NCBI GenBank assembly: GCA_009784615.1
Contig: WRBJ01000003.1
Location: 19,005-83,004, forward strand
Direction of reading: 5' to 3'
Length of the DNA: 64,000 nt
From: Defluviitaleaceae bacterium
Lineage (GTDB): Bacteria > Bacillota > Clostridia > Lachnospirales > WRAX01
Shown here: positions 32,083 through 49,921 of the stretch, in pieces
How the letters are laid out: each line of letters opens with the position of its first letter
Position numbering within the stretch: position 1 is the stretch's first letter
Translations under genes and position numbers: made by a program
Notes under the pieces: model-generated
What the model saw: the letters and a program-made list of their open reading frames with translations, nothing else
The model's database searches: none
Told to the model about the DNA's origin: nothing

Positions 32083-32520
32083 TTACACATCTTTTCGGTC
32101 GATATTTCCTCTATCGCCCCTATCTTTCAAAGCCTTCAAAATATCTTGCAGTCTTTTCGGCACGGGCAAACCCATCAAACTCCAATTTTCAAGCATACTA
32201 AGTGCTTCGTTCGCAATAAAATACGATATGGTAATAGTACGCAAAACTCCGCCAAGCTCTAAAACACTGTCAACCAAATTGCCCACCGCAACAATAAAAA
32301 ACATACCAATCTTACGTGCTGCACCAACAAACATTTTATACGAGCTTATATCGCGCATAACGCCCGCCTTAATTATGCCTGTAACAAAATCAATACCCAT
32401 CATAGCGAAAAGCGCAAGCAATAATGCGTCAGTACCGCCTATTAAATATGTGAATAAACTAATAACACCACCAATAAACCCACGTATATAAATATTTTCA
32501 AACATATCAAACACCTCCAT
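32083..32520 (-). CDS. Phage holin (TcdE/holin_4-like family)
   Basis: Three TM segments. The sequence GIDFVTGIIKA......SS.....G..RK........VGNL.D and the C-terminal ANE.LS.LEN....G.P.P are typical of this holin family. Confidence 0.75.
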   Translation of the reverse strand: MEVFDMFENIYIRGFIGGVISLFTYLIGGTDALLLALFAMMGIDFVTGIIKAGVMRDISSYKMFVGAARKIGMFFIVAVGNLVDSVLELGGVLRTITISYFIANEALSMLENWSLMGLPVPKRLQDILKALKDRGDRGNIDRKDV

Positions 32521-32536
32521 AATATTATATGCCGCA

Positions 32537-32797
32537 CTATATTGTACGGCTCATCATCTTTAAAACACCAAACCAACGGTTTACATCATTATAATCCAAC
32601 CACGACATATCTCGATTTTCTCCCTGCCAAACCTTATCGCTACCAATCCTACGCTCGATTCCATTAATAAATTCTGCAGTAGGAATAAGCCGCTCGTCCG
32701 CCGACAAATCCAATTCATCAATCCCAAGCCTGCGAAACTCCTCATTCAACCCCTCGAAAACTTCAATGCTCATAAAATCATCCCTCGTATAACTCAT
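32537..32797 (-). CDS. Phage-associated hypothetical protein
   Basis: 86-aa ORF with an AGGAGGGA RBS, located between the tail gene and the holin. Confidence 0.35.
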   Translation of the reverse strand: MSYTRDDFMSIEVFEGLNEEFRRLGIDELDLSADERLIPTAEFINGIERRIGSDKVWQGENRDMSWLDYNDVNRWFGVLKMMSRTI

Positions 32798-32964
32798 AAT
32801 CCCTCCTAAATAACTGCTGTTTCACTTTAAGGCGGCTAAAAATTCCGCCTGACCTGACAGGCATTCACGACATAGAGCAACTTTAGCTTCTGTTGTCCCG
32901 CCGCAAGTTAAACACGACGGGTTTCAGCGGCGTGTTTGACGTAGTCGGGGGGGACTACAGAAGG

Positions 32965-34836
32965 TTAAGTTGCTATAACAACCGCCTTGGTCGCCCCCGT
33001 AAAAACCCCGCCGTCAAACCCTATCTCTTGATAAAACGCTCTGCACCTTACCATCCTGCCATCCTTATCCACCTGTAACATAAAATTATCCCCAAGCTCG
33101 CAATCCACATCGCCCCGCCAATGCACCTTTGCAAACACCAAAGCCCGTAAAAGCCTAAATTTACGCTCTAAAAACCAATCCCGCACGCTTTGTATATGTA
33201 CCGCATTGCTAATAAACATAGGCAAATCTACCATATACGGCTTTTCTGCTTCGCCCTCCTTCTTCCACGGTGCAAAATAAAAATGTTGCGTGGATAATAT
33301 CGAACACCGCCAACCCCGCACCTCTACCGTACAACGCCCATTGCCAACGACCCTAGCTGTCATATACATCGTATGCCTTTGCAGATTTTGCAAGCCAAAC
33401 CCGCCTGTAACACTTACATTAGCCTCGCCCCAAATAGGTGCGTCATAAGGTATCATCACATCAAGCGACCCTGCCACATCCAATTGCACATTAGCCAGCC
33501 ACCCTTGGTCAAGCGAAATCATACGCTCTGTCAACATAATCCCATTATAATAATGGCTTTGCGAAATCTGCGGTTTTGCATACGCCACCCCATAGTCCAA
33601 ATCTGCCTTTAGCTCGCCTTGATGTATAGAAAATAAATCAACAAAATGTATTCTACCCTGCCTATCCTCATAAATTCCGCAGCTTGCCAGCTTTGCCAAA
33701 TCTGCCAAAGCCCTTCTATGGCTTACATTCCCTGTAAAACCGGGGAAACGTGGGTAAGTATTCATAATATGCGGTACAACAACCTCAACACCCGCCTCGG
33801 CGGCAATCCTTCTTGCCAAATCACCCATATGCTCCAACCCAAAATGACCACCGTAAAACACCGCATTATCAAGCATTTTCGCCCCGCTATGCGCAACCAT
33901 CTCTACATTATCATTGCTAACAACCCACCTATCCAAATAATATTGCGAAAAATTTGTGTAAATCATCCCGCCATCACTGCCATAGCCTACACCTTGCGCA
34001 TATTCCAGCCTACTGCCTTCCTCTAACATAGAAAACAAGCCATCACCCACATCAAGCAAGTTAAAACGCCCATTGCTATTAGCCACCTTAACCCGAAGTT
34101 CGTTATAAGGCAAATTTTTACCCTCCACATCTCCCTGATGTATTGCATTAACTTCAAGCAAATCCCCACCATCAAACACCACAACGGGCGCAAAATGCAC
34201 TTCGGTTACCCTAGCCCGCCTATGCGGTTGCACCATATTGTAAACTGTTATAACAATCTGCGAAACACCATTTGCCCCATCTGTGCCGATAATATGCGGA
34301 AAAACTCCACTCTCATCAGGTGCAGAGCTAATAAATACATTCCTAATAACAGACCCAGACCGACTCCTAAAAACAGCCTGTGCAAAACGTATGGGCGCAT
34401 TGTTCCTATCACAAACAATATTAACAACAGGGACATCTCTAGGAGTATCAAAATCAATTACAATCTCGGGACGATTTGCAAAAGCACCATTTTCATTAGC
34501 AATTTCATCTGAAACAAAGCCCACCTCGATTTGCGAATTTTCTGCCTCCACAGGCAACATAAAACTACCATCCAACCGCCACAAACCACGCTCCATCGTC
34601 GCAATTTTTCCCGCATTATGGCTTATCCCATTTAAAACCTGCCCAACCCGCGAGTGTTTAGCTCCGCTTGCCGAGCTAACCACAACATCGTCCTTTAAAT
34701 TCCCATCATTGCCCGAAAGTGTAATCAAAGCCTTGTTCCTACGCAACGCTTTATTTTTCAACAAACTCACAACCCACATCCTTCCACCACAATTCCCCAT
34801 TAACAACCACAATGCGCCCCGCTTTCGGTTGCGCAT
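32965..34836 (-). CDS. Phage distal tail/host-interaction protein (start uncertain, possibly 34779)
   Basis: A large ORF immediately after the TMP and a Dit-like gene. The call rests mainly on position. Confidence 0.5.
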   Translation of the reverse strand: MRNRKRGALWLLMGNCGGRMWVVSLLKNKALRRNKALITLSGNDGNLKDDVVVSSASGAKHSRVGQVLNGISHNAGKIATMERGLWRLDGSFMLPVEAENSQIEVGFVSDEIANENGAFANRPEIVIDFDTPRDVPVVNIVCDRNNAPIRFAQAVFRSRSGSVIRNVFISSAPDESGVFPHIIGTDGANGVSQIVITVYNMVQPHRRARVTEVHFAPVVVFDGGDLLEVNAIHQGDVEGKNLPYNELRVKVANSNGRFNLLDVGDGLFSMLEEGSRLEYAQGVGYGSDGGMIYTNFSQYYLDRWVVSNDNVEMVAHSGAKMLDNAVFYGGHFGLEHMGDLARRIAAEAGVEVVVPHIMNTYPRFPGFTGNVSHRRALADLAKLASCGIYEDRQGRIHFVDLFSIHQGELKADLDYGVAYAKPQISQSHYYNGIMLTERMISLDQGWLANVQLDVAGSLDVMIPYDAPIWGEANVSVTGGFGLQNLQRHTMYMTARVVGNGRCTVEVRGWRCSILSTQHFYFAPWKKEGEAEKPYMVDLPMFISNAVHIQSVRDWFLERKFRLLRALVFAKVHWRGDVDCELGDNFMLQVDKDGRMVRCRAFYQEIGFDGGVFTGATKAVVIAT

Positions 34837-35182
34837 ACATCATCTTCTCCACCGCCTTTTGCTCTTTGGGGCAAAAATACCGCACATTCACAAATAAAGG
34901 CGAAGCACCCCGCACCAACCTACCATAATCATCCCCGCTTATCATACGCCAACCACAGCTAACCACAGCCTTAACTGCCACCAAATCGCCAACCAAATCT
35001 CCATTGGCATTACGGTTAAATTCGCCAATATCCTCAAAGCCCACGCCATAAACATCAGGGCTAACCAAGCCCATACCATCAATCACTATCTCAACCAAAA
35101 AATCCCCCCAATCAATATCCCCGTCTTGCTTTAACCTCATCCAAACCGTCAACCAAAACCTCTGCCAACTTCCTGCCGTCAA
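34751..35182 (-). CDS. Phage distal tail protein-like (small)
   Basis: The position directly downstream of the tape measure gene supports the call. The start is uncertain and overlaps the TMP 3' end. Confidence 0.4.
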   Translation of the reverse strand: MTAGSWQRFWLTVWMRLKQDGDIDWGDFLVEIVIDGMGLVSPDVYGVGFEDIGEFNRNANGDLVGDLVAVKAVVSCGWRMISGDDYGRLVRGASPLFVNVRYFCPKEQKAVEKMMYAQPKAGRIVVVNGELWWKDVGCEFVEK

Positions 35183-36077
35183 GCTCTAGCACAACCTTCT
35201 GCACGCCACCCCTTGGCGAACCATCACCCGCTACGGCATCCGCAAGCATATTAGCCAAATTAACCATCCAGCCTGTATTATTTTCAAGCGGAAGCACGGC
35301 TTCCCTGCCTTGCTCGCCAACAAGCGCAAGCGTAGGAGCCGACACAATGCCGCCTTTAGCAAGCGCAGGCACATTAGGAATAGCAGGCACATTAAACCCC
35401 AAACTACCTCCGCCAAGCCATCTAGGAATATCAATTTTAATACGGTTAATCCCACCAATCATCGTATTTAGTCCGTCAATTATGCGATTAACCACACCGC
35501 TAAAATTTCTGCCAATGCCCGTCCAAGTGTTATCCCAGCCCGCACCCATTCCCGCAAGCATACCATCCCAGCTACCCGCAATGCCGCCACTAACCCGCTC
35601 TACAGCATTGCCCAAACCACCAACATCCCTTTGTGCGCCGCCAAAAGCCGCCCTAAAGCCACCCGCAAAACCCCTTGCACTACTGGTCAAATTATTAATA
35701 TTAGAAAGTAATCCCCTAGTGCCTTCCGTAACTGCCGCAAAAGACATCTCTGCCAAATCCCGCCCCATACGTACGGCGCTTTCACCAAATGCCTGAGCTC
35801 TGTCCGAAAGTGTCGATAACATACTCGCCGCCCGCTCTTGCGCATTAATATTGCTTAAAAAATTCCTTGTCAATATTGGCATATCACTAATCAAATCACC
35901 CAAAACGCCCGAAAGTCCACCAACAGCTTCTCTTGCAGGCAAACTGCCTTGCGCAAAAGCCGCAAAATCGTTTTCCATACCATTAAGCAACCTACCCGCA
36001 TTTGCCAAGCCCTTCTCTAATTCCTTCATATCAAGCCGCAAATCCAAATATACCGAACCAACATTAGTCCCTGCCAT
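35112..36077 (-). CDS. Phage tail tape measure protein (short, 321 aa)
   Basis: A Gly/Ala-rich helical protein beginning MAGTNVGSVYLDLRLDMKELEKG. It follows the chaperone pair. Confidence 0.6.
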   Translation of the reverse strand: MAGTNVGSVYLDLRLDMKELEKGLANAGRLLNGMENDFAAFAQGSLPAREAVGGLSGVLGDLISDMPILTRNFLSNINAQERAASMLSTLSDRAQAFGESAVRMGRDLAEMSFAAVTEGTRGLLSNINNLTSSARGFAGGFRAAFGGAQRDVGGLGNAVERVSGGIAGSWDGMLAGMGAGWDNTWTGIGRNFSGVVNRIIDGLNTMIGGINRIKIDIPRWLGGGSLGFNVPAIPNVPALAKGGIVSAPTLALVGEQGREAVLPLENNTGWMVNLANMLADAVAGDGSPRGGVQKVVLELDGRKLAEVLVDGLDEVKARRGY

Positions 36078-36086
36078 AAAAACCTC

Positions 36087-36458
36087 CTATCCAAACATAG
36101 CCATCAATTCCTTCTGCAACTCCTCGTAGCGGCAACTCTCGTTCGCTCGGCAGCCTTGTCGTTTTTTCGTGTTACAAAATTCAAACCAATCCGCACGCAA
36201 CTTACGCTCCATCACACTCAATCCCTTCAAAACTTCGCTTCTTTTTTCGCTACGTAATATGACGAGCCGCCCAAGCGGTGTGTCGGGCATTATACCCGAC
36301 AACAACCGCAAAAACTCCCCAAGCGGCAAATCTTCTTTGCTTAACCTAATCCCATACTGCATAGCAAAGCTGGCTTCAATAGCGTCTTTGTCAAATTCTA
36401 AATCGTAATATGTATCATTCTGTTTTGCCACGAAATCGACGCTTTGCTTCCTCCACAT
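36087..36458 (-). CDS. Tail assembly chaperone, downstream (T-like) frame
   Basis: It overlaps the end of the upstream chaperone ORF by 44 nt in the +1 frame and has no convincing RBS of its own. Confidence 0.45.
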   Translation of the reverse strand: MWRKQSVDFVAKQNDTYYDLEFDKDAIEASFAMQYGIRLSKEDLPLGEFLRLLSGIMPDTPLGRLVILRSEKRSEVLKGLSVMERKLRADWFEFCNTKKRQGCRANESCRYEELQKELMAMFG

Positions 36459-36741
36459 TTAAATCTTGAATAGCCGCAAGCACAATAACCACCAAATCTT
36501 GCATTACAGCAAAAGGCAAATCCATCCCCAAAATTTCCTGGTAGCTATCCAGCCCTAAAGCCTGTCCTATAACAATTTCAAATTCATCGCTCGAAGCAGT
36601 TTCGCCGCCTTCCAACGCCTTTAACATACCATTGATTCCCCTAAAGGTCGAAAGTCTGTTATCAATAGAATAAATCTTGTCGCCAAGCCTTATTTCTGGG
36701 CGTTTGTTCAATTTCTCGTTATCAATTTGATACATTAACAT
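36415..36741 (-). CDS. Tail assembly chaperone (G-like)
   Basis: A small acidic protein between the tail tube and TMP genes. The start overlaps the tail tube 3' end. Confidence 0.5.
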   Translation of the reverse strand: MLMYQIDNEKLNKRPEIRLGDKIYSIDNRLSTFRGINGMLKALEGGETASSDEFEIVIGQALGLDSYQEILGMDLPFAVMQDLVVIVLAAIQDLNVEEAKRRFRGKTE

Positions 36742-37219
36742 CACCCCCAAACAACGTAGGCGAAGGTGTCAAAACATCCCCACTATTGCGCATATAAAGC
36801 GGTATGCCGTCGCTTAAACATTCAAACTCTAGCACAGCAATATCGGTAGAGCTACCGCCGCCGCAAGCCGTTACGTTAATAACGCAATCCATAGTCATTT
36901 GGTCACCGTTAGGAAAAATAACCCATAAATTGCTCTCTGCCAAATTACCGTTTTGATACGCCAAGCCCGCAATATAATCATTGCCTGGGCAATTAACAAC
37001 ACGCTTTCCTGACAAGCCAACTGTCATAGATTTTGCCGTCATCATCCTGCGACTCCATCCCATAGCATCCAGCGGCTTCCATTCCTCAATCCCATTATCA
37101 AAGCTAATAGAAAAATTCTCCATTCCTCTAATTGTCTGATGGTCGTCCTCATTGACGGCAAGCCTGCCAACCGTCGAAACTTTAAATTGAACATCTTTTA
37201 CAGGATAAACATTAACCAT
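36722..37219 (-). CDS. Phage major tail (tube) protein
   Basis: 165 aa, immediately upstream of the chaperone pair. A GGAGGAAATGG RBS is present. Confidence 0.55.
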   Translation of the reverse strand: MVNVYPVKDVQFKVSTVGRLAVNEDDHQTIRGMENFSISFDNGIEEWKPLDAMGWSRRMMTAKSMTVGLSGKRVVNCPGNDYIAGLAYQNGNLAESNLWVIFPNGDQMTMDCVINVTACGGGSSTDIAVLEFECLSDGIPLYMRNSGDVLTPSPTLFGGDVNVSN

Positions 37220-37231
37220 ACCATTTCCTCC

Positions 37232-37621
37232 CTACGAAATAAAATCCACATCTATTACATATTCAAAAACCCCACGACTATCAGCCCCAAGCCAAATTGG
37301 GTTATCGTAAATCACCTTTACAAACCCGCTCTTGTCCTCAAGTGTGAAATTTTTACCTGCCATTGCTTCATAAAAATCTTTTGACATTTTTTCGGCAATA
37401 GCACCATCACGACCCAGCCGCAATAATACGCTAACTGCCGTTACATCGTAAGCCCGATTTTGCTTGCCTCCGACATTCTCTTGCCTGTTACGGCTACCAC
37501 GGCGTGGGTAAATACCGCCAGCGATTTCACGATTTTTGGCGATTTCGTGTAGGTCGAATTGTACAGCGTGCAAGCAATGCTCGCCCCTACAAATAATTTC
37601 TTTAACCTCGTTTAAGCTCAT
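37232..37621 (-). CDS. Phage head-tail joining / tail completion protein
   Basis: Call based on position only. Confidence 0.35.
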   Translation of the reverse strand: MSLNEVKEIICRGEHCLHAVQFDLHEIAKNREIAGGIYPRRGSRNRQENVGGKQNRAYDVTAVSVLLRLGRDGAIAEKMSKDFYEAMAGKNFTLEDKSGFVKVIYDNPIWLGADSRGVFEYVIDVDFIS

Positions 37622-38231
37622 TTTTCATCACCTCTGCAAATGTCTTCTGAGCAAGACCGTTGTTGATATATGGGTCAAACCACCTTGCTCCTGCGTTGTT
37701 GTTTATGGTTTGGTTAAAACTAAACTCAGGATGAAAATATTTGCGCCTTGCATATACCGTGTCGTTGACAATTGATACCTTTTCATCGTCCAAGCCGCCA
37801 ACATCAACATAGGTTGCCGCATTTTGCAAATGACCTGTGTCAAAAGGCATTGTTCCGTTATTGACCAAATCCTGCCTTATTGCCTGTGCCGCCGCAACAA
37901 GCGCATTTTTCAACCCAAAGCAGATATGATTAAAACTTCCGTCGGGATTATTAACGACCTTCATTTCCACCACGTCGTATCGAATGTCGTTGCACAAAAA
38001 CTCTAAATCCTGCAAATCACAACAGCGAGCAACCCTCAAAACCTTTTCGCAATCCGTCGTAGCAATTGCCGTAACATCCTGCAAAACGCCGTCATTTTCA
38101 CGTTTAACATTAACACACTCGCCAAAATAGCACCATCCACGCCAAACTTCCTCACCACTTAAAAAAATCCCAAAATCCCAATTTTGCAAAAATTTAGGAT
38201 AAGGCAATTTGCCCCAGTTTTTAAGCATCAT
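37602..38231 (-). CDS. Phage head completion / minor capsid-like protein
   Basis: The ATG at 38231 overlaps the upstream stop (ATGA). The C-terminal half resembles phage minor capsid/neck proteins. Confidence 0.4.
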   Translation of the reverse strand: MMLKNWGKLPYPKFLQNWDFGIFLSGEEVWRGWCYFGECVNVKRENDGVLQDVTAIATTDCEKVLRVARCCDLQDLEFLCNDIRYDVVEMKVVNNPDGSFNHICFGLKNALVAAAQAIRQDLVNNGTMPFDTGHLQNAATYVDVGGLDDEKVSIVNDTVYARRKYFHPEFSFNQTINNNAGARWFDPYINNGLAQKTFAEVMKNELKRG

Positions 38232-38596
38232 ACAACACTCCTCATCAACCCTGTTGACATTAACATCTGCCAAGCCCAAAAGCCGCAACCCGCCACTTCC
38301 CACGGTTTTTCCTTGCGTACTTGGTTTTGAACCTTCATACCGTAGGCACTATATCCCGCCAAATTAACCGCAGGTGTACCATCCACATTAGCAAAACTAT
38401 CAATCATCAAGCAAATAGCCTTTTTAATTATCCCCTGCTGATACTTTGTTAAATTGCCAAAACCCAAAGCATTAATTCTACCGTGTGTTAAAATATCCAC
38501 CAAGTCGCACGCTCTATCAAGCAATTTCCTCAAATCTTCCCCGCAATACCGTCCTTTGTATGTCCTGCGATAATATCCTTCAGTAATATAACTCAC
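38228..38596 (-). CDS. Phage head-tail connector protein
   Basis: A GTG start follows GGGAGGGG. It is the first gene downstream of the capsid gene. Confidence 0.4.
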   Translation of the reverse strand: MSYITEGYYRRTYKGRYCGEDLRKLLDRACDLVDILTHGRINALGFGNLTKYQQGIIKKAICLMIDSFANVDGTPAVNLAGYSAYGMKVQNQVRKEKPWEVAGCGFWAWQMLMSTGLMRSVV

Positions 38597-38662
38597 AAAT
38601 ATACCCCTCCCTAGAAAAACGCAGGGGCGACCTCTAGTCGCCCGCTCCGCAATTCTCTACTT

Positions 38663-39541
38663 CTAATTAGCATTAATGGCAATACCGCCAATCCTAGTAT
38701 CAATAACAAATAAATCGCCATATTGGCGGTTTTGATAAAGATATCCATCACCAACCGTATGGCTACCCGGTGCCCATAGCTTAATATAACTATGTTTATT
38801 AACCGCAATAACCGATGATGGATGTATCAACATCATATTAATTTGCCTTGCGCTTGCCACTGGCACAAACCCATCGCTAAAATCATAAGCCGTCTTCATA
38901 CGGCTGGTTGGTACAACAACCACCTGCACCTCGTCCAGCATACGCACATTGCGCTTTATGTTGCCGTCGCCTTCAATAACATTCATAACACGGTTAAGCT
39001 CGGCAGATTGTGCAAGCATTTTGTTTACAGCAGGCGTAACGTACAAAATTCTACCTTCCTGCGGAACTTCTTCTTCGTCCATACGTTGCATATACTCATC
39101 AAAAACCTCAAGCACATTTTCACGGTTAAGGCTACGATTATCTGCATTTGCACCCGATGCAATAAAATCTTGATGAACTTTGCTTAAACGATATGCGTCG
39201 GTTTCTGGAATGGCGTGTTCGGTTTCAAAAACATTTGTCAAATTAACCGCCGCCAATACCTGATTGGTTTCGTCAACATCCATAGCATCCACAAAAAATT
39301 CTACATCACGGTCGTGAGCCAATACTTTTGTTAAATTGCCATTTGCCACCGTTTGGCGATTAAACCCGCCATCACGACTATGATTCTTGTAACCTCTTAA
39401 CGCTAAAAATGGAATTTTCACCGTGTTGCCGCCCAAAAAATTGACATTCTCTGTTGTTAAACCGCTTGTTAGTAGCTCACGGTTATATTTCTGTCTTAAC
39501 TCTCCCTCAAAAACACTCGCATAATTAACAAAATTAGCCAT
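38663..39541 (-). CDS. Phage major capsid protein
   Basis: 292 aa with a GAGGAGGAATG RBS. It sits in the expected position after the portal and a small scaffold-like ORF, and is flanked by hairpins on both sides. Confidence 0.65.
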   Translation of the reverse strand: MANFVNYASVFEGELRQKYNRELLTSGLTTENVNFLGGNTVKIPFLALRGYKNHSRDGGFNRQTVANGNLTKVLAHDRDVEFFVDAMDVDETNQVLAAVNLTNVFETEHAIPETDAYRLSKVHQDFIASGANADNRSLNRENVLEVFDEYMQRMDEEEVPQEGRILYVTPAVNKMLAQSAELNRVMNVIEGDGNIKRNVRMLDEVQVVVVPTSRMKTAYDFSDGFVPVASARQINMMLIHPSSVIAVNKHSYIKLWAPGSHTVGDGYLYQNRQYGDLFVIDTRIGGIAINAN

Positions 39542-39610
39542 TACACATTCCTCCTCATATTATATGCTATTCCGCCTGAAGGCGGCTGACAGATTACGGC
39601 CGACAGCCGC

Positions 39611-39862
39611 CTAAACATTCCCAAACCCCTTCGCAATCGCATTTTGCGATTTTTGCACAACACCCAAATCTGCACCAATTTTAAAACCCACAGGCGGCAT
39701 ATTAGCAAGGTTAGGGGCGGTTTCCATACCCTCTGCCAGCTTCGTCAAAGCCACCATCATCACCTCTAGTGTTTCGTTAATCATTTCCAGCTTATCCGCA
39801 AGCTCTTGCCCATCATAAGCCTTGTCATAATGGTTTTCGTACAAATCTTCATAACTTCTCAT
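39611..39862 (-). CDS. Small phage protein (scaffold- or decoration-like)
   Basis: The ATG at 39862 follows GGAGGG. The protein is 83 aa, helical and acidic. Confidence 0.3.
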   Translation of the reverse strand: MRSYEDLYENHYDKAYDGQELADKLEMINETLEVMMVALTKLAEGMETAPNLANMPPVGFKIGADLGVVQKSQNAIAKGFGNV

Positions 39863-39863
39863 T

Positions 39864-41288
39864 TTAATTCCCTCCATTTTTCTGGCACAATCGCCTAATT
39901 TCATCATTTTTTTGTTGTGTTGTCCAAGTATCCCCATACAACTGCTCTAACGCTGTTTCTACAGAAATAATCCCCAACTGCACACCCTTGCCAACGCTTT
40001 CAATCTGGCTGTCAAAGCTGGGTGCGGCATATTCGCCAAATTCCGCTTGCACTTCATAATCCACTGGCACATTTGCATACAACGCATCATTTAATGCCAT
40101 AACAACCCTTGTCAACTGCGCCAAAGCCACTCGCAAGCCGCCAATAATCTTGCCACGGGTATAAAGTGTAGCTTTTTCCTTCTCTCTTTGTGCCATCGCA
40201 TTATCGCTTCGCTTTAAATCAATACCAAGCGTAGACGGCGACAATATGCCCTGTAACGCAATATTAAGAAAATTTGCATAGCTCGCCTCAAACGCCTCCG
40301 TATCAATATGCGGTTGCACCACCTTAATGCTGTTATCCGCCCCTTCTGCCAAATCCATTTCTGTTTGTACAAAGCGGCTTTCAAATGCATTCATAGCCTG
40401 CAATTTGCCATTATGCGGGTTTCTTGGCAACATCTGGGCTGGTATGTATTTTTGTACACGTCCATCACGTAAAGCGTCCACCCATTGGCTAATAATTTCG
40501 TCAATAGCGTCAAAAGCTCCGATTTTGCTGTCAAAAATAGACTTTCCTCTGCCCTCGAATTTAGGATTATCATCAAAAATAAGCGGCACTGCAAGGTTTA
40601 TTCCCAAATTATGCTCCACATCCGCAGGCTTTTCACCAATCACCTCCTCTCCTTTGCCATTGACCAAGCGGTATCTAATTCCTTTGTTTGAATAAATTTC
40701 TTCCAGCACCAACTTGTCATTACGAGCCTGTCCCTCAAAATCCGACAAAAACACCACTTCATATACCCTACCCCGCCGATAATTAAACCTCACCCTATCC
40801 CCACCAAAAAACTCAATAATAGGATGTGGGCTAACCTCGCCATCAAAGCTGATTTTAAAAGCTCCATCGCCCAAAGCCAAAACCTGCCGCACCGCCTTTG
40901 ATAGCAATTTGTTGAAGTCATTTCCATCTGCAATATCTTCCCAATCCGTACGGCCATCACCCTGCGAACACACTTTAACCCCCAAAAAATCCCCAACTGT
41001 TAAATCCGCCAGCGTATCCACAATTAAAGCAGGCAATCCGCTGTGAATTTTGCGTATCTTCGGGTTAGCCCCACCTTGCGACCAAAAAGACCCATTGCCC
41101 ACATAATCGTCCATTTGCCCATAAAAACTAGCCAACTCCGAGCAGTTGCCACGATACCAAATACCATTTCTAATCACCTCCTTTCCAAAATCCATATCTG
41201 ACAAAATTGTATCGTAAAACGGACGAATAATATTCGCCCCTACGATTGTGTTTCCCAACCAATCCCTCATTTTCTTAAACCACCTCAC
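39864..41288 (-). CDS. Phage portal protein (SPP1 gp6-like)
   Basis: 474 aa. The position after terL and the N-terminus (WYRGN..EL..FY) are typical of this portal family. Confidence 0.75.
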   Translation of the reverse strand: MRWFKKMRDWLGNTIVGANIIRPFYDTILSDMDFGKEVIRNGIWYRGNCSELASFYGQMDDYVGNGSFWSQGGANPKIRKIHSGLPALIVDTLADLTVGDFLGVKVCSQGDGRTDWEDIADGNDFNKLLSKAVRQVLALGDGAFKISFDGEVSPHPIIEFFGGDRVRFNYRRGRVYEVVFLSDFEGQARNDKLVLEEIYSNKGIRYRLVNGKGEEVIGEKPADVEHNLGINLAVPLIFDDNPKFEGRGKSIFDSKIGAFDAIDEIISQWVDALRDGRVQKYIPAQMLPRNPHNGKLQAMNAFESRFVQTEMDLAEGADNSIKVVQPHIDTEAFEASYANFLNIALQGILSPSTLGIDLKRSDNAMAQREKEKATLYTRGKIIGGLRVALAQLTRVVMALNDALYANVPVDYEVQAEFGEYAAPSFDSQIESVGKGVQLGIISVETALEQLYGDTWTTQQKNDEIRRLCQKNGGN

Positions 41289-41291
41289 AAA

Positions 41292-42611
41292 TTAAACCTC
41301 CATTTTCATAATTAATTGTTTAAACGGCACAACCCCATATTCCGCACTGTCCAAGCAATCCACGCTATAGCTACCATCATCAACCCTAACCCATTCGCCT
41401 TTTTCCCTCGCTTTCTCGCACCATCTAGCCGCATAAAATGCATCAACCCAAGCCGACAGCTCCTTAGCAACAAGCAGTTTTTTCTTGTTGATAAGGAAAG
41501 AAAAAAGACGTATTCTATCCAGAATCCCGTCTTTTTTATATGAAGGATAAACCGCCGTCCTTATACCACGCCTAGCAAGCTCTTGCGCCAAAGCCGCCCT
41601 AAACATCTTTTCGGCACTTTCGCAAAAAACCGCCCCGCCAAATTCAAACGCCGCAAAATCCTTCATCCACACCGCAATGCAATCCGCCAGCTCCTCAACA
41701 TATTTGGCGTGCGTCATCTCGTTACGTTTGCCCTGCCTATGATAATATCCATCAACCAGCGCAAGCTCGCCATCCGCCGTAATCCCAACCAGCGTGGCAA
41801 CCGTCGCATCACGCCCGCCAACGTCAACCCCAACAGCCATACGCACAAATTTCTTTTGCGAAAGCTCATCCCTTGGCACAATCAACCCCTCGTCAAATCC
41901 GCTATATATCACATCCGCCCCACCGCAACGCAAGCCCAATATATCCCGCCTATACCAAGCCGAAGCCTTGTCATAACTAGCAAGACGGGCACGCAAGTCA
42001 TCCTGATTTAACGCTTTGTTGTCAAACACTGTAAAATGCCCGTAATTAACGCTTTTGTCGCCCTGCACATCAAACCTATCCAAAAACTCCCTGTAAAACC
42101 AATGTCCTTTTTCCTTAGCATTTAAATCCAAAAACACCCGCCGCGTGCGCGCCGCCAGCGTCCTATCAATCGCCTCAAAGAAAAACCCCTTGTTAAGCTC
42201 GTTCGCCTCGCTTAAATAAACACATCCAAAGCTCGCCCCTTTAATCCTCGCCGCATCGCTAGCCTTACCACCCCCTTCAATAATTACCACCTTATCATCA
42301 ACAAAAATCGCTTCTTTACCCTCATACTTCCCTTCCCAGCACCGCCCACCAAAAAAATTCCGCAACCCAAACCCATTACAATCCACAATATTAAGCCTAG
42401 CACAAGCCCTTGTAACCCCCGCAACCAAATGTATCTTCTCTACACTTCGCTCAATCGCCATTGCAAAAGCAATTACATTAAGCACATTTTTACCAGCCCG
42501 CTTGCCGCCTTCTGCCACATTTAACCAGCAATCCAAACTCCTGCGCAAATATTTCCTCTGTCCCACAGAGAACCCTGCATATTCCAAATCATTCCCCCTT
42601 CTACGTAACAA
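41292..42611 (-). CDS. Phage terminase large subunit (PBSX-like family)
   Basis: A Walker A-like GGKRAGKN is near the N-terminus, and the C-terminus carries RNaseH-like nuclease acidic residues (VGVDVGGRDATV). Confidence 0.8.
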   Translation of the reverse strand: MLRRRGNDLEYAGFSVGQRKYLRRSLDCWLNVAEGGKRAGKNVLNVIAFAMAIERSVEKIHLVAGVTRACARLNIVDCNGFGLRNFFGGRCWEGKYEGKEAIFVDDKVVIIEGGGKASDAARIKGASFGCVYLSEANELNKGFFFEAIDRTLAARTRRVFLDLNAKEKGHWFYREFLDRFDVQGDKSVNYGHFTVFDNKALNQDDLRARLASYDKASAWYRRDILGLRCGGADVIYSGFDEGLIVPRDELSQKKFVRMAVGVDVGGRDATVATLVGITADGELALVDGYYHRQGKRNEMTHAKYVEELADCIAVWMKDFAAFEFGGAVFCESAEKMFRAALAQELARRGIRTAVYPSYKKDGILDRIRLFSFLINKKKLLVAKELSAWVDAFYAARWCEKAREKGEWVRVDDGSYSVDCLDSAEYGVVPFKQLIMKMEV

Positions 42612-42639
42612 AAAAAGGCTGAAGCATCAACCTTTTTAA

Positions 42640-42963
42640 TTATTTACTATTTGGATTTACTCTTATAGCAAACAAATATCCAATAGTAGCAGACAAAACA
42701 AAACGCACCGGTTCAACAATCATCATTCTTAATTGTACATCAAAATTAACATCAAGACGACTTATTATAATTTCGCCTGCATAGAACAACACTAAAAATA
42801 TACCGCAGGAACTAAGTATAAACTTACTTATTCTTAGCTTTTCTTTTTCGATTTCGTGACCTCGGTCGGCTTCTTTTTCCTTAGCTTCCCATCCTTTAAC
42901 TTCTTCATAGCTCGGATGTATCATTTCATTAAACGGCTTGTCTTCCTTAATCGGTGCTGACAT
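42640..42963 (-). CDS. Small two-TM membrane protein, candidate toxin partner of the Panacea-domain protein
   Basis: The ATG at 42963 overlaps the upstream gene by 17 nt. A charged N-terminal half is followed by two hydrophobic helices. Confidence 0.4.
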   Translation of the reverse strand: MSAPIKEDKPFNEMIHPSYEEVKGWEAKEKEADRGHEIEKEKLRISKFILSSCGIFLVLFYAGEIIISRLDVNFDVQLRMMIVEPVRFVLSATIGYLFAIRVNPNSK

Positions 42964-43486
42964 CCTCAAAAAACCTCTTTCCGTCTTCTCTAATCTCTGT
43001 ATCCCCAATAATCCAAGAACTTATTTCTCTCATCTTCTTCCAAGCTGTACCCTCTCCGTGGGTCATATCCGAAAGCTCCCAAGCATCAACATTTCTATAC
43101 TTAAGCCAAACTTCGTCAATCACATTTCTAAAAAAATCACTATCCTCATTTACAACAAGAAATTTACCGTCTATTTTTGCATAATTGTTGATAGGTCTCC
43201 ATCTAAAGTTTTTAAAATACTCGTAAACTTCACGTTCTACAGGTCCATACTGCCAAACTTCAAATTTGTTCAAAAATAAAGGAGTTCCGCTTAAATAAAG
43301 GTATCTTGCATATACAAGATAAAGCAGTTTTTGCAATTTCATAGGGGTAATTTCTATTTCATCTCTTTCAGCTCTTTGCAATATATTATTCGACACCATT
43401 AAGGAATTAACCACACAAAACGCCTCCCCTCTCCTTTTGATTTTATTATACTTCAACTTCCAAAACTTTGCAAGAACTTTTTTCAA
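42947..43486 (-). CDS. Panacea domain (DUF4065, GepA/SocA-like) protein
   Basis: The sequence ITPMKLQKLLYLVYARYLYLSGTPLF...FEVWQYGPVEREVYEYFKNF matches the DUF4065 core. A TTG start is inferred. Confidence 0.75.
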   Translation of the reverse strand: MKKVLAKFWKLKYNKIKRRGEAFCVVNSLMVSNNILQRAERDEIEITPMKLQKLLYLVYARYLYLSGTPLFLNKFEVWQYGPVEREVYEYFKNFRWRPINNYAKIDGKFLVVNEDSDFFRNVIDEVWLKYRNVDAWELSDMTHGEGTAWKKMREISSWIIGDTEIREDGKRFFEDVSTD

Positions 43487-43550
43487 ACATAATCACCACA
43501 CATTTTTTAACTATTATTAGCACTATGCTAAAATATATGTTGAGATGAAG

Positions 43551-43901
43551 CTAATTTTGCACTTTACTAATCATCTCCGCCAACATCATATAATCCACCC
43601 CTTTTTCGCTTTTTTCTTCCTCATTACCCCTAGCCCTTTTCTTCATCCACATCTCGACCGCCTTTAGCTCTCCGCCAATAGCCTTGTCAAACAAAATCTC
43701 CTCTACCATAAAATCTGCCGCTACATAATCCACCTGCAAAGCCGCCGCAATATCTTCGTGTTCTTTTTCCCATCGCTTTAGCCTATTTACCGCAACCCGC
43801 ATTTTCTTCGCCACTTGGGCATAATCGCAACCCCATCTGCGCCAACCTGCAATAAGTGCCAAACCATCACGCCGCAACCATCTGTTTAAATCTCTTTCCA
43901 A
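43551..43901 (-). CDS. Phage terminase small subunit-like HTH protein
   Basis: A TTG start at 43901 follows AAAGGAG. HTH-like LIAGWRRWGCDYAQVAKKMRVAVNRLKRW is present. The longer ATG-43961 reading would have to encode the leader terminator hairpin. Confidence 0.5.
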   Translation of the reverse strand: MERDLNRWLRRDGLALIAGWRRWGCDYAQVAKKMRVAVNRLKRWEKEHEDIAAALQVDYVAADFMVEEILFDKAIGGELKAVEMWMKKRARGNEEEKSEKGVDYMMLAEMISKVQN

Positions 43902-43920
43902 AATACCACTCCTTTTTATC

Positions 43921-43951
43921 AAAATAAAACAGACACCCCAAAGGATGCCTG
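43921..43951 (-). terminator. Intrinsic terminator in the leader of the phage-derived cluster
   Basis: The minus-strand RNA reads CAGGCAUCCuuugGGGUGUCUG followed by UUUUAUUUU. It lies between the promoter (-10 at 43996-44001) and the first start codon. Confidence 0.55.
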
Positions 43952-43977
43952 ATTTTTTCAAATAAAATTGCTTTTCT

Positions 43978-44040
43978 TCACTTCTCCACTATACCATTAT
44001 ACCACAGGTGCGACTAACAAACAATCTCATCTTTTTTAAA
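43978..44040 (-). promoter_or_regulatory. Promoter cassette copy 1 (TTGTTT-17-TATAAT with TGn)
   Basis: The minus strand reads TTGTTTgttagtcgcacctgtggTATAAT. The ~62-bp cassette is repeated at 44598-44659 with 3 mismatches and 1 indel. Confidence 0.6.
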
Positions 44041-44047
44041 AAATAAA

Positions 44048-44289
44048 CCCCCGTCATTGCGAGGGCGTAAGGGTATACGACAAGCGCAGATAAAGACTGT
44101 CAAGCAACTTGTTGTAGAGCAAACTAGATTGCTTCGGGGTTCACACCCCTCTTGTCGTAGGAACGTCCCTCGCAATGACGAAGCCCGCCCACTCGTCATT
44201 GCGAGGGCTACCAAATACATAAAGCAATACACATCAAGCCCGAAGCAATCCAGCAAAGGGATGTAGATGTGACAAGGGTATACGACGAA
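44048..44289. repeat. Nested palindromic non-coding element
   Basis: There are three copies of CGTCATTGCGAGGG (44052, inverted at 44167, 44193). An inverted pair GATTGCTTCGGG/CCCGAAGCAATC lies at 44127/44239. The direct repeat AAGGGTATACGAC lies at 44069/44274. Confidence 0.7.
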
Positions 44290-44292
44290 TAC

Positions 44293-44481
44293 AAATAAAA
44301 AATCAGCCCTTTAAGACTGAATGAATAAAGCGCTTGACAAATAGACCTGAAGTGTGTTAATCTACACTTAGGTCTTCGGACTGGGAATTGGGCTTGTCGT
44401 GGTGGGTGTTCTTTGTCGAGAGTTTTACCACCACGACAAGCTATTCTTAAATTCCCGTCCGTGTCTGCCAGGATGTATTAC
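44293..44481 (-). ncRNA. Unassigned ~190-nt small RNA unit (promoter to terminator)
   Basis: The minus-strand promoter is TTGACA-17-TATGAT (44488-44516). A perfect 14-bp stem pairs 44392-44405 with 44428-44441 inside GGGAATT/AATTCCC. A second hairpin lies at 44345-44378, and a terminator hairpin plus U-run at 44293-44320. Confidence 0.45.
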
Positions 44482-44571
44482 ATAACCATCATATACCATT
44501 TAGCGAATTTTGTCAAGGTCTTTTTTTATTTGTTTCACAAAATCCCCCACACAAACAACGTATACACCAGC

Positions 44572-44596
44572 AAAAAAGGAAGTGCAACGCACTCCC
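44572..44596 (-). terminator. Intrinsic terminator directly after promoter cassette copy 2
   Basis: The minus-strand RNA reads GGGAGUGCguuGCACUUCC followed by UUUUUU, roughly 15-35 nt downstream of the predicted start site. Confidence 0.5.
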
Positions 44597-44597
44597 T

Positions 44598-44659
44598 TTC
44601 ACTTTTCCACTCTACCATTATACCATAGGTGCGACTAACAAACAATCTCATCTTTTTAA
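44598..44659 (-). promoter_or_regulatory. Promoter cassette copy 2
   Basis: Nearly identical to 43978-44040, including the TTGTTT-17-TATAAT core. Confidence 0.6.
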
Positions 44660-44693
44660 AATTTTAAAAAATTTTCAAAACTTATTTTGCCTT

Positions 44694-45458
44694 TTATCCT
44701 CTTAACCCACGTTTGCGATAAGCCACAACAAACAATGCAATAAACAGCAACGCATTAGCCGCAACCACCAACAACGCAAAATTCATACCGCTATACATAG
44801 GCAAAATTCCTTCAACCCATTCGCCATATTCATTATAACGCCCTTCAAAAGCCTCACTGCCAATAACAATCTCAATCAAGCTATAAAAAATCTGCCCTGT
44901 AAAAATAACAGTACCAACACGTGCAACCGTATCATTAAACATAGATAAAAACGGCACAAAAGACAACACCATCATAATCGGGCTATATATAGCCGCACAT
45001 TGCTGCACATTTTTGCTAAATAAACCAATAACTGCTCCCAGTACGCTACTGGCAAGCACGCCAAGCATACCAAGCCCCATAAATTGCGCAAACTGCCCGC
45101 CACTAATGCCACCAATCCAAGCAAAAGCCAATAACGGCAACACACTCATTATAATAGTAAAGCTCATAAGCCCAACCAAATACTGCACAGGCTTAACACC
45201 AGCCGTTACCAAAAAGCGCAGACTCTTATACTCGTTATCTTCGGCAATACCGTTTGCCATCATAATAAGCGGTGTCATACCAACAAAAATCATAGCAAAC
45301 TGCATAACAATCATATTGCCCGCCTCAGGGTCCTCTTGCCCCATAAAACTACTAACGACCCAAGCAATAACGGGATACATAATAAACATCAAAGCAATGC
45401 TCATATTTTTAGGAAAATCGTTTAATTGTTTAACAAAAATAGCTTTAACCGCATTCAT
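44694..45458 (-). CDS. ABC-2 type transporter permease
   Basis: A six-TM protein whose start overlaps the stop of the upstream ATPase gene. Confidence 0.65.
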   Translation of the reverse strand: MNAVKAIFVKQLNDFPKNMSIALMFIMYPVIAWVVSSFMGQEDPEAGNMIVMQFAMIFVGMTPLIMMANGIAEDNEYKSLRFLVTAGVKPVQYLVGLMSFTIIMSVLPLLAFAWIGGISGGQFAQFMGLGMLGVLASSVLGAVIGLFSKNVQQCAAIYSPIMMVLSFVPFLSMFNDTVARVGTVIFTGQIFYSLIEIVIGSEAFEGRYNEYGEWVEGILPMYSGMNFALLVVAANALLFIALFVVAYRKRGLRG

Positions 45459-46278: not shown

Positions 46279-46304
46279 GACTTTCGTGCCATAATATATC
46301 TTTT

Positions 46305-46392
46305 GGAGAAGTACTCAAGTGGCCGAAGAGGCGTCCCTGCTAAGGATGTAGGTCGGGCAACCGGCGCGAGGGTTCAAATCCCTCCTTCTCCG
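46305..46392 (+). tRNA. tRNA-Ser (anticodon GCU)
   Basis: The cloverleaf was folded by hand. It has acceptor GGAGAAG/CTTCTCC, anticodon loop CUGCUAA, a long variable arm, T-loop GGTTCAAATCC and discriminator G. No CCA is encoded. Confidence 0.9.
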
Positions 46393-46402
46393 TACTATAT
46401 AT

Positions 46403-47186: not shown

Positions 47187-48278
47187 TTACATACGCTCAA
47201 TGCTTCTGCTCATCTGCTCTGGATTTGTAGCGTGTGTAATAGCTGTTTCTTTTGTAATATCACCTTTTTTAAATAGGTTAAGGATGTAGGAATCCATACT
47301 AATCATCCCTGTGCCAGATGATGTTTGCAAGACATTGTCAATTTGGAAAGTTTTAGATTCTCTTATTAAATTGCGTATGGCACTGTTTACGTGCATAACT
47401 TCAAACGCAGGCACCACGCCGCCGCTGGCTTTTGGCAATAATTGCTGTGATATAACCGTCCTTAATAGCAATGGCAGTTGAAAACGCACTTGTGTTTGCT
47501 GTTGTGCGGGAAAAACGTCCACAATACGCTCTATTGTATTTGCCGCACCCAATGTATGTAGGGTAGATATAAGCAAATGTCCTGTTTCTGCGGCAGTCAT
47601 CGCAGTTTTAATTGTTTCGTGGTCACGCATTTCACCTAGCAAAATAATATCGGGTGCTTGACGCAAACAGGCTCGCAAAGCTGTCAAATAAGACCTTGTG
47701 TCTGTAGAAATCTCCCGCTGACTTACAAGGCTTTTTTTATCTTTATGAAGATATTCAATAGGGTCTTCCAATGTTATTATATGCCCGTTTCTTGTGCTGT
47801 TAATAGCGTCGATAATGCAGGCAAGCGTTGTTGTTTTGCCGCTACCAGCGGGTCCCGTTACCAAAACCATACCGTTTTTTTCATTAGCCACCTTCATAAC
47901 TTCTTCAGGAATATGAAGGTTTTGATAATTAGGCAAATCAAAAGAAACTACACGTATAACCGCCGCAAATGTGCCGCGCTGGTTATAGGCCGAAACCCTA
48001 AAACGAGCAACCCCAGCAAGAGTTATAGGAAAATCATCGTCGCCGTTTTTTTCATAGTTGCTAATATCCCTTTGGGCATATTCGTATAATTCTTTTACAT
48101 ATTTATTGGCTGTTGCAGGACTTACACGTTCTTCGCTTTGTTCTGCAATACTGCCATCTATCCTAAAAGACATATGCCGTCCTGCCCCAATAAAAATATC
48201 TGATGCATTTTTTTGCACCGCTTGTTCTAACCAGTGTCGCACAGATTCGTTCACAAAAAACCTCCCAATTATCGACAA
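47187..48278 (-). CDS. pilT: PilT-family type IV pilus (retraction-type) ATPase
   Basis: Walker A GPAGSGKTT, Walker B DIILLGEMRD and His box TGHLLISTLHT are present, along with the PilT signature AIRNLIRE. Length 363 aa. Confidence 0.85.
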   Translation of the reverse strand: MSIIGRFFVNESVRHWLEQAVQKNASDIFIGAGRHMSFRIDGSIAEQSEERVSPATANKYVKELYEYAQRDISNYEKNGDDDFPITLAGVARFRVSAYNQRGTFAAVIRVVSFDLPNYQNLHIPEEVMKVANEKNGMVLVTGPAGSGKTTTLACIIDAINSTRNGHIITLEDPIEYLHKDKKSLVSQREISTDTRSYLTALRACLRQAPDIILLGEMRDHETIKTAMTAAETGHLLISTLHTLGAANTIERIVDVFPAQQQTQVRFQLPLLLRTVISQQLLPKASGGVVPAFEVMHVNSAIRNLIRESKTFQIDNVLQTSSGTGMISMDSYILNLFKKGDITKETAITHATNPEQMSRSIERM

Positions 48279-48286
48279 AATGTCAT

Positions 48287-49568: not shown

Positions 49569-49574
49569 CGCCTA

Positions 49575-49907: not shown

Positions 49908-49921
49908 AAAGCACCCCTAAC

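Follow-up and report, generated by a model that had tools for sequence, protein, structure and literature searches.

The late genes of phage lambda stand behind the PR'-qut-tR' arrangement served by Q, in which a promoter, a -10-like element and a terminator come before the late genes and a short abortive RNA is made. PBSX of Bacillus subtilis has an Xre repressor, a sigma-like factor (Xpf) and a late operon that begins with xtmA and xtmB. To our knowledge, essentially nothing is known of how gene transfer agents (GTAs) are regulated in Clostridia. The lambda arrangement is summarized in bioRxiv 10.1101/2024.11.20.624540. Characterized GTA clusters are controlled by a promoter, a terminator and an antiterminator, as at PgtaT of CcGTA with GafY and GafZ, the latter a protein with a sigma-like helix-turn-helix whose binding element lies between -35 and -10 (PMC11150451), and at PbgtA-K of BaGTA, where BrrG needs a NANNNT -10-like element and a leader terminator (bioRxiv 10.1101/2024.11.20.624540). 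For Gram-positive phages, PMC3753634 describes late terS promoters that depend on Ltr proteins (RinA, ArpU, LtrA with Sigma70_r4, LtrB with DUF1492, and LtrC) and reports that these proteins, the Sigma70_r4-family LtrA included, activate terS promoters via two or three short direct repeats ahead of the promoter, to which they bind. FpGTA of Faecalibacterium is presented in PMC12946183 as a candidate GTA that is podovirus-like. Here we analyze a promoter-like cassette that occurs twice ahead of terS, the first gene of a phage-derived cluster in an uncultured Defluviitaleaceae bacterium of the termite gut. The stretch analyzed, called the window below, comprises 64,000 nucleotides of contig WRBJ01000003.1 (assembly GCA_009784615.1, positions 19,005 to 83,004), and coordinates are those of the window. 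With moderate confidence, we read the cassette as a factor-dependent, Ltr-type late promoter with a terminator, belonging to a domesticated phage-like cluster and duplicated around a repetitive insert.

Predicted promoter and terminator of the cassette, and its family

Read on the minus strand, each copy of the cassette runs AAAAAGATGAGATTGTTTGTTAGTCGCACCT(A/G)TGGTATAATGGTA(G/T)AGTGGA(A/G)AAGTGAA, and both carry the spacer CGCACCT (coordinates are collected in Table 1). The extended -10, TGgTATAAT, is perfect in the two copies and is separated by 17 nt from a -35 hexamer, TTGTTT, that agrees with TTGACA at 3/6 positions; because of this poor match, a consensus promoter scan did not list the cassette. 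The first-pass annotation, made from the letters of the window, had called each copy a strong, near-consensus promoter. Near-consensus is apt for the TG-extended -10 and does not hold for the -35, and a plain strong constitutive promoter is improbable, given the poor -35 and a site that is held by the family-conserved block AAGATGa.AT.gAATGTTAGT.

An ungapped alignment of 23 distinct cassette copies, both window copies among them, gave the consensus AAAgATGa.AT.gAA TGTTAGT.tga.aTGTG. TAtaAT gg TAttaT ggaAAAtta. The TG at -15/-14 is present in all 23 copies and TGTTAGT at -30 to -24 in 21, with GTTAGT at -29 to -24 conserved across the family. A second -10-like hexamer, 2 nt after the -10, begins with TA in 22 copies and reads TAnnnT in full in 19; alignment A2 shows no variation at T9 or A10 and a conservation of at least 90% at T14. 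The predicted transcription start of copy 2 (~44611/44610) falls within this second hexamer, TAGAGT.

The closest TerL relatives of the cluster (55-70% identity) come from termite-gut metagenome-assembled genomes of Defluviitaleaceae and Clostridiales. A search of other genomes for the cassette and its neighbors, which the first-pass annotation had suggested, found it upstream of terS or of other operon starts in the related clusters of Defluviitaleaceae. An exact 27-nt cassette pattern proved too strict, with 0 matches in IMG/VR and JGI metagenomes. The degenerate pattern AATGTTAGT-N8-TGNTATAAT hit 55 loci in IMG/VR, of which all but two were rejected as chance matches inside genes; the true relatives were termite-gut contigs, with the cassette preceding portal and capsid genes in L210 (3300010162_000492) and cassette plus terminator preceding tail genes in L209 (3300010162_000489). 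On sequence conservation, then, the cassette is a family-specific promoter module that is not peculiar to the window. The L209 contig also encodes, judged from translated sequence only, Mob relaxase-like and Rep proteins.

In both copies the predicted transcript forms a G+C-rich hairpin directly followed by a U-run, the signature of an intrinsic terminator. The hairpin of copy 2 (12 pairs, -15.7 kcal/mol, z -3.8; equally stable in 0 of 200 shuffles) begins 18 nt past the -10 and is preceded by 11 nt of transcript. The copy 1 terminator begins 40 nt after the -10, that is, after ~35 nt of leader, and the whole copy 1 leader folds at -16.1 kcal/mol (z -1.6). The two transcripts, which share the start AGUGGA(A/G)AAGUGAA as originally proposed, are predicted to end at about +40 (copy 2) and +70 (copy 1), ahead of the terS ribosome-binding site (RBS). 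Folding and a terminator scan thus agree with the earlier claim that each promoter runs into a hairpin and U-run before any gene.

The same layout recurs in relatives, with a hairpin and T-run 15-18 nt past the -10 in copy 2 of the window and in L014c, L018, L019, L020, L023b, L026, L080 and L083, a terminator start 20 nt past the -10 in L120, and one at 40 nt in copy 1 of the window and L014a. At least nine different stem sequences retain 9-12 pairs, and compensatory changes are found at 7/8 consensus stem pairs. Because the position is kept and the stems covary across relatives, we regard the promoter-proximal terminator as a selected feature and not an accident of the window. The first-pass annotation had held that expression of the cluster would need antitermination or bypass of the terminator. 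Since the promoter-plus-terminator arrangement is conserved with covarying stems, terminator bypass or control by a trans factor is a reasonable proposal.

Terminators placed in this way could also serve mainly as insulators against read-through from host genes or from the small RNA (sRNA)-like unit of the insert, leaky for the cassette's own transcripts and with no antitermination factor involved. Such a role would suit the absence of any terminator, in the terminator scan, between the stop of the ABC-2 permease gene (44694) and copy 2, the AI-2E transporter gene that ends right before the cassette in L083, L019 and L020, and the several cassette copies that lack a terminator altogether. However, copy 1 and the L120-type prophages already have an upstream terminator and still keep the downstream one, and the fixed position of 15-18 nt together with strong stems (9-12 bp, U5-7) suggests coupling to the promoter. 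We consider insulation as the main role rather unlikely.

Riboswitch, T-box and alternative-fold attenuation were rejected, with no Rfam family, no competing helix in the copy 1 leader and a copy 2 leader of 11 nt; the leaders are too short to make alternative RNA folding likely. At the gathering threshold Rfam found only the tRNA-Ser in the whole window, and a permissive scan of 43800-44800 gave chance-level matches only (Phe leader, sraA, miRNAs). A further GC-rich hairpin, GGGCGAC...GTCGCCC with a displaced T-run, lies directly after the major head gene (38625-38643, minus strand). It could act within the operon as a partial terminator and is compatible with both antitermination and leaky termination.

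Putative regulators and a proposed mechanism

The same control layout was found in four full prophages with the same terL family (L113, L115, L120 and L145, from Saccharofermentans and rumen Clostridia). In these distant relatives a -10 is followed by a terminator and then by the first late gene, and L120 and L145 show the TG-extended -10 and TAnnnT. Clean direct repeats, all with 10-nt spacing, occur in L120 (GATGTCAGT-GAATGTCAGT, with ATGTCAGT twice), L113 (AAATGAGAG three times) and L115 (GATGGCAGT-AAATGACAGT); none are evident in the L145 control region. In L113 and L115 the adjoining upstream genes encode RusA and a ~147-aa protein with a Sigma70_r4-like C-terminus. L120 likewise has a Sigma70_r4-like regulator just upstream, and its upstream open reading frames (ORFs) gave no RusA hit. 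The prophage regulators fall in phrog_36/248 ("transcriptional regulator/activator"), show similarity to sigma regions 3/4 that is below curated cut-offs, and by sequence match the LtrA family of late activators. An adjacent ltr-type gene was found only in L113, L115, L120, L145 and related loci. Because the -35 is poor and the block is a direct repeat beside a sigma70-region-4-like regulator in these distant relatives, we infer that the cassette depends on an activator.

Scans of about 50 window ORFs against Pfam, PHROG and NCBIfam (~20 called ORFs were unscanned) found no Q-, GafZ-, BrrG-, RinA-, ArpU- or Xpf-like gene, in keeping with the initial remark that no antiterminator gene is recognizable. 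The sole NusG gene (11286-11807), assigned by its L11 neighbor and its sequence and not by scanning, is of the housekeeping type. An extracytoplasmic function (ECF) sigma factor gene (SigM/SigW-like, 163 aa), followed by a zf-HC2 anti-sigma gene, lies at 17236-18551 (plus strand), 26 kb from the cassette, and no link between this pair and the cluster was found.

We propose a control module of four parts, namely the conserved -45 to -24 block, whose degenerate 10-nt-spaced repeats end in TGTTAGT and would take the place of a normal -35; the TG-extended -10; the TAnnnT 2 nt downstream; and the terminator before the terS RBS. A small sigma70-region-4-like late regulator of the LtrA/Ltr type, encoded outside the window, would bind the block, and this trans factor would be required for productive transcription. 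The proximal terminator would stop basal transcription as well as polymerase arriving from the host ABC-transporter operon upstream, thereby keeping a lethal cluster silent, and would be overcome on induction. Quite possibly the factor renders RNA polymerase resistant to the terminator, by analogy with lambda Q, GafZ and BrrG; perhaps, instead, high initiation combined with incomplete termination is enough to overcome it.

Several observations weigh against this mechanism. The activity of the promoter, its start sites and the termination of its transcripts are predicted from sequence, and since a perfect TG-extended -10 can do without an activator, a constitutive promoter is possible. In the window the halves of the block, ATGAGATT and TTGTTAGT, form a degenerate direct repeat that matches at 4/8 positions, although the block itself is conserved in the family. 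At a distance of 2 nt, the second TAnnnT is nearer to the -10 than the pause elements of lambda or BaGTA are. Six of the 23 copies (L009a, L009b, L013b, L015, L016 and L210) have no terminator-like hairpin, and in two more (L014b and L023a) the hairpin is atypical or degenerate, so the terminator is not obligatory. Finally, neither the window nor the 6-kb surroundings of any Defluviitaleaceae cluster gave a tblastn match to the regulators of L113, L115 and L120, and the 19 matches retrieved from a database with the L120 regulator were all close relatives of rumen type. Because no regulator homologue lies near the Defluviitaleaceae clusters, the factor for the cluster, if the cluster is active, would be encoded elsewhere.

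A different account would make both copies strong constitutive sigma-A promoters and let expression depend wholly on a promoter-loaded, processive antiterminator of the Q/GafZ/BrrG kind, with GTTAGT as its binding element and TAnnnT as a sigma-dependent pause; polymerase starting at copy 2 would then pass all four minus-strand terminators. The perfect TG-extended -10 in 23/23 copies, the motif conserved between -35 and -10 with a conserved TAnnnT just downstream, the conserved and covarying promoter-proximal terminators, the terminator-like hairpin after the major head gene, and the small regulator that follows RusA in relatives, as Q does in lambda, are all in its favor. It also has precedents in GTAs (PMC11150451; bioRxiv 10.1101/2024.11.20.624540). 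The regulator family of the relatives, however, is annotated as activators, not antiterminators, and is experimentally known as such (PMC3753634), and no Q, GafZ or BrrG homologue was recognized in the ORFs scanned. The poor -35 and the cassette copies without a terminator also fit this account badly, and processive antitermination would make a repeated promoter needless, yet duplication recurs. We think it unlikely as a full explanation.

GTTAGT and TAnnnT, the two most conserved features that are not of sigma-A type, might instead be read by a dedicated alternative sigma-like factor, as a -35-type element and a -10-type element 19 nt downstream, with TGnTATAAT as a promoter that is secondary or overlaps. 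A sigma-like factor, Xpf, serves elements of the PBSX type, and the late promoters of SPO1 have a similar-looking consensus, CGTTAGA / GATATT. The ECF sigma/anti-sigma pair would offer a candidate within the window, but it is unlinked to the cluster. Moreover, a spacer of 19-20 nt is long, the ~147-aa regulators of the relatives are too small for a full sigma factor, and the presence of TG and TATAAT in every copy would be unexpected if they were irrelevant, and we judge this explanation improbable. Our preferred reading is that of a factor-dependent promoter of the Ltr type with a leak-proof terminator, which may be bypassed in the manner of Q/GafZ.

Duplication of the cassette and the surrounding locus

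Comparison of the window with itself gave a 71-nt direct repeat (43977-44047 and 44598-44668) with an ungapped identity of 90% and a spacing of 621, the two copies mismatching at 7 positions. Its first ~60 nt contain 3 mismatches, followed by a 1-nt length difference within a T/A run, and the coordinates and counts first reported for it (a ~62-bp cassette present twice in direct orientation, with 3 mismatches and 1 indel) were borne out. A 40-nt core of the cassette occurs exactly twice in the window and in 0 of 100 shuffles, and terS starts ~95 nt downstream of copy 1. An independent ENA contig (L003) contains copy 1 and 270 nt of the insert at 100% identity, the junction from insert to copy 2 (44502-44656) is spanned by Logan contigs from other termite-gut runs, and further metagenome contigs end exactly within cassette copies, as expected of a repeat. 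Because the copies differ and independent samples support both junctions, the duplication is genuine and not an assembly artefact. A single-copy allele was not seen, with no contig joint skipping 621 nt in four termite-gut runs; the sole joint reported in those runs (44405 to 44509) falls inside a repeat element of the insert.

Direct repeats on either side of a repetitive insert could also stem from a mobile element, as its attachment sites or target duplication, or from faulty assembly. We rejected these readings as hardly credible. The insert has no coding capacity, and there is no integrase or transposase; 71 nt far exceeds a transposon target duplication; and the repeat is a conserved promoter that is present as a single copy in many relatives. 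An artefact is further contradicted by the 7 differences between the copies and by the junctions supported in independent samples.

Two ORFs that reach into the insert, 44014-44256 (minus strand) and 44413-44628 (plus strand), had no Pfam hit. Pieces of the insert reach 5-20 times the depth of the flanks (assembler depth in the four termite-gut runs), and because of this raised depth we take the insert to consist of dispersed multi-copy elements. A comparison with the window and with all fetched loci of relatives found no second copy and no similarity, and the repeat unit had 0 matches in IMG/VR. The unit at 44296-44516 combines a near-consensus promoter (TTGACA-17-TATGAT, 44516-44488, minus strand) and a terminator (44320-44303 plus T-run) with a ~185-nt RNA predicted to fold into a Y shape (-67.8 kcal/mol, z -7.9). 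Imperfect inverted repeats of 22 nt (44320-44341 / 44509-44530), each of which holds an inward-facing TTGACA, border the unit, and in termite-gut metagenomes its 3' half (44332-44405) is covered ~20 times as deeply as the flanks. The unit is either a miniature inverted-repeat transposable element (MITE) or a member of a multi-copy sRNA gene family. The units at 44047-44253 that resemble repetitive extragenic palindromes (REP) reach 5-9 times the flank depth, and the terminator-like hairpin that one of them forms (44066-44047, minus strand) abuts copy 1 on its upstream side. Similar GC-rich palindromes (e.g. cattcccgcgaaagcgggaatg) occur in the L089 leader and adjoin cassettes in L019, L022 and L091.

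Duplication of the cassette recurs in relatives. At least two copies per locus (2-3 each) were found in L009, L013, L014 and L023, and accessory inserts are bracketed in 3 of the 4. L009, the closest relative, shares the ABC-2 synteny of the window and has two copies around a RepA_N gene fragment; L013 has a copy, then hicAB on the opposite strand, then terS, with a further copy beyond terL; in L014, three copies surround DUF4417 and two more genes that separate terS from terL; and L023/L093 have a 200-nt tandem of REP hairpin, cassette and terminator. The spacer, variable elsewhere, is common to the copies of any one locus, which marks them as local duplicates. Between the two copies of L009, after the truncated RepA_N gene, a cluster of DnaA-box-like TGTGGATAA repeats (L009 2971-3070) resembles a plasmid or phage origin remnant. 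In runs X1/X2, loose ends lie at window positions 43994, 44034 and 44040, and contigs share the cassette core with different flanks; one such metagenome contig runs from the -10 directly into GAGGAGG-N6-ATGAAG with no terminator. As metagenome contigs continue the core into other flanks, at least one more cassette-driven gene should be present in the same community.

The simplest account of this pattern is that an insertion into the operon head, usually terminator-bearing, is tolerated when the module repeats downstream. In the window, a local duplication would have accompanied the insertion of 550 bp of dispersed repeats (REP-like units plus the MITE/sRNA-like unit) into the control region; copy 1 would retain control of terS, and copy 2 would be a still-intact leftover whose ~40-nt RNA is probably a by-product, comparable to lambda 6S RNA. 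The first-pass annotation had offered this RNA as a decoy, titrator or regulatory RNA, a suggestion that gained no support and is not needed if the duplication is an insertion by-product. Selection of copy 2 for a function of its own, as a ~40-nt regulatory sRNA or a regulator-titrating decoy, would account for its fully intact promoter and terminator and could be read into the duplicated cassettes of four other lineages. In three of those four, however, unrelated inserts lie between the copies, and what follows the upstream copy is the inserted gene that it drives (RepA_N in L009, DUF4417 in L014) or nothing to drive. The leader RNAs vary between lineages except in their promoter-proximal part, 11 unpaired nt leave little room for base-pairing specificity, and no target was found, and we regard a separate function of copy 2 as very improbable. 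The duplication alone is of modest interest, as an ordinary by-product; its recurrence suggests that accessory DNA (toxin-antitoxin genes, repeats, replication-gene fragments) can enter the head of the late operon while coupling to the switch is kept.

The cluster itself runs from terS through a SocA/Panacea gene and a 107-aa ORF to a PBSX-family terL, an SPP1-type portal gene and the major head gene, followed by genes for a connector, a major tail protein, a short 321-aa tape measure, a 623-aa protein and a holin. The exact TerS protein is already on record as a called gene. Domain and PHROG scans found no integrase, repressor or replication genes in the cluster. Host genes bound it, those for an ABC-2 transporter and tRNA-Ser on the upstream side and those for an AraC regulator and ABC exporters beyond the downstream end, and the clusters of relatives adjoin either AddA and AI-2E transporter genes or ABC-2 transporter genes. 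This content of structural, packaging and lysis genes only, conserved at host loci, is of the GTA type, and the cluster is, by its genes, a candidate GTA of termite-gut Clostridia.

Among the other genes of the locus, the SocA/Panacea antitoxin-like gene (Pfam E 2e-20) and the overlapping 107-aa ORF, which has no family, lie between terS and terL (42640-43486, minus strand) and by sequence are a toxin-antitoxin-like moron; the same site holds hicAB (L013), DUF6291 (L013, L090) or DUF4417 (L014) in relatives. An Amidase_3 cell-wall hydrolase gene (20652-21272, minus strand), 11 kb beyond the holin gene, could be the missing endolysin. The tRNA-Ser(GCU) gene (46304-46393, plus strand) lies 1.6 kb upstream of copy 2. 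The window also contains a MazF/PemK toxin gene (5807-6211, plus strand) and a PilT/T2SSE-T2SSF pilus-like gene set (47187-50968, minus strand).

Table 1. Predicted features of the duplicated cassette, the insert and the adjoining cluster (window coordinates)
Feature	Position	Strand	Basis
Cassette copy 2 (upstream copy), directly after ABC-2 permease gene 44694-45458	44598..44668	-	direct repeat; ungapped alignment with 22 other copies
Copy 2 conserved upstream block AAGATGAGATTGTTTGTTAGT, ~-45 to -24, presumed trans-factor binding site	44634..44654	-	family conservation
Copy 2 weak -35 TTGTTT	44645-44640	-	within upstream block
Copy 2 TGTTAGT motif	44640-44634	-	within upstream block; kept in 21/23 copies
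Copy 2 extended -10 TGgTATAAT	44617..44625	-	sequence; TG at -15/-14 in 23/23 copies
Copy 2 second -10-like hexamer TAGAGT, 2 nt past -10	44609..44614	-	TA 22/23, TAnnnT 19/23
Copy 2 intrinsic terminator, stem 44600-44589 / 44585-44574, loop GUU, U6; predicted RNA ~40 nt	44572..44600	-	fold
Insert of 550 bp, non-coding, repetitive DNA	44048..44597	.	no Pfam hit; raised depth
sRNA-like or MITE-like unit, no Rfam family	44296..44516	-	promoter, fold and terminator
REP-like palindromic units CGTCATTGCGAGGG at 44052, 44167 (reverse-complement) and 44194	44047..44253	.	3 matches; 0/100 shuffles reached 3
Cassette copy 1 (proximal): block 44033-44013, TTGTTT 44024-44019, TGgTATAAT 44004-43996, -10-like TATAGT 43993-43988	43977..44047	-	repeat and family alignment
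Copy 1 leader terminator, 9-bp stem CAGGCAUCC/GGGUGUCUG + UUUUAUUUU	43920..43951	-	hairpin 43951-43930, T-run to ~43920
terS (116 aa), first cluster gene; RBS AAGGAG 43914-43909, TTG start 43901	43551..43914	-	phrog_309 terminase small subunit, E 2e-11
Phage-derived cluster, ~12 kb, terS to holin	32083..43901	-	Pfam/PHROG scans

Comparison with known late-gene switches

The module would work like an Ltr-type terS promoter and also like a Q/GafZ-type switch, but with no ltr gene beside it and no homologue of Q or GafZ in the ORFs scanned, it is a full member of neither type. Like the Ltr promoters in PMC3753634, the cassette stands directly upstream of terS, in the window and in relatives, and its block, the presumed regulator site, may correspond to the short direct repeats that lie upstream of or overlap those promoters; a Sigma70_r4-like gene just upstream is shared too, but only by the distant L113, L115 and L120. 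It differs from them in that no ltr gene adjoins it in the window or in the Defluviitaleaceae relatives (an ABC-2 transporter gene lies upstream in the window), that the window repeats are degenerate, and that a conserved terminator stands between promoter and first gene, whereas a term search of PMC3753634 showed a terminator only upstream of the promoter, that of the ltr gene. We found no description of a conserved terminator ~40 nt from the start of an Ltr-type promoter, nor of its being kept in a domesticated cluster without its own regulator.

If our reading holds, the cassette provides a sequence-defined control module for a candidate GTA of Clostridia, and it raises the question whether sigma-region-4-like late regulators act by antitermination, as GafZ and Q do, and not by activation only. 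A bolder extension, which we hold to be doubtful, is that the cassette defines a GTA regulon of Firmicutes in which a distantly encoded LtrA/DUF722-type protein would bind the -45 to -24 block and, in contrast to what is shown for Ltr activators, would be a Q/GafZ-like processive antiterminator working ~40 nt from the start. Were this true, the widespread Ltr "activators" of Gram-positive phages would be antiterminators, at least in this branch, and scattered cassette copies (the third metagenome copy, and those before the portal gene of L210 and the tail genes of L209) would coordinate separate loci.

With lambda PR'/Q, the cassette shares a predicted promoter and terminator ahead of late genes, a conserved motif between -35 and -10 and, in relatives, a regulator gene that follows a RusA-type resolvase gene; its TAnnnT may correspond to the NANNNT element. 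Unlike lambda, it has no Q homologue in the ORFs scanned, a -10-like element only 2 nt from the -10, a weak -35 and a Gram-positive host, and its terminator lies at +40 rather than at about +194. PBSX resembles the window in its family of TerL and as a defective phage-like element whose late operon begins with the terminase genes; the window cluster, in contrast, is siphovirus-like, measures ~12 kb and has no xre or xpf adjacent.

The alphaproteobacterial GTAs are similar in that a domesticated head-tail cluster, whose regulators are not nearby, is controlled by promoter and terminator, the bypass of the latter being only presumed here. Sequences and phylum are unrelated, and the window cluster is a candidate GTA from its genes alone. 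In BaGTA the NANNNT element lies 5 bp past the -10, whereas TAnnnT here lies 2 nt past it and overlaps the expected start, and the alphaproteobacterial terminators come after the first gene or within a long leader, as against +40 here. FpGTA is podovirus-like, unlike the siphovirus-like cluster of the window. As described in PMC12946183, it is nonetheless alike in being a clostridial operon of compact size (~10 kb) that holds terS, terL and the genes for portal and capsid and is conserved among strains, with accessory loci elsewhere.

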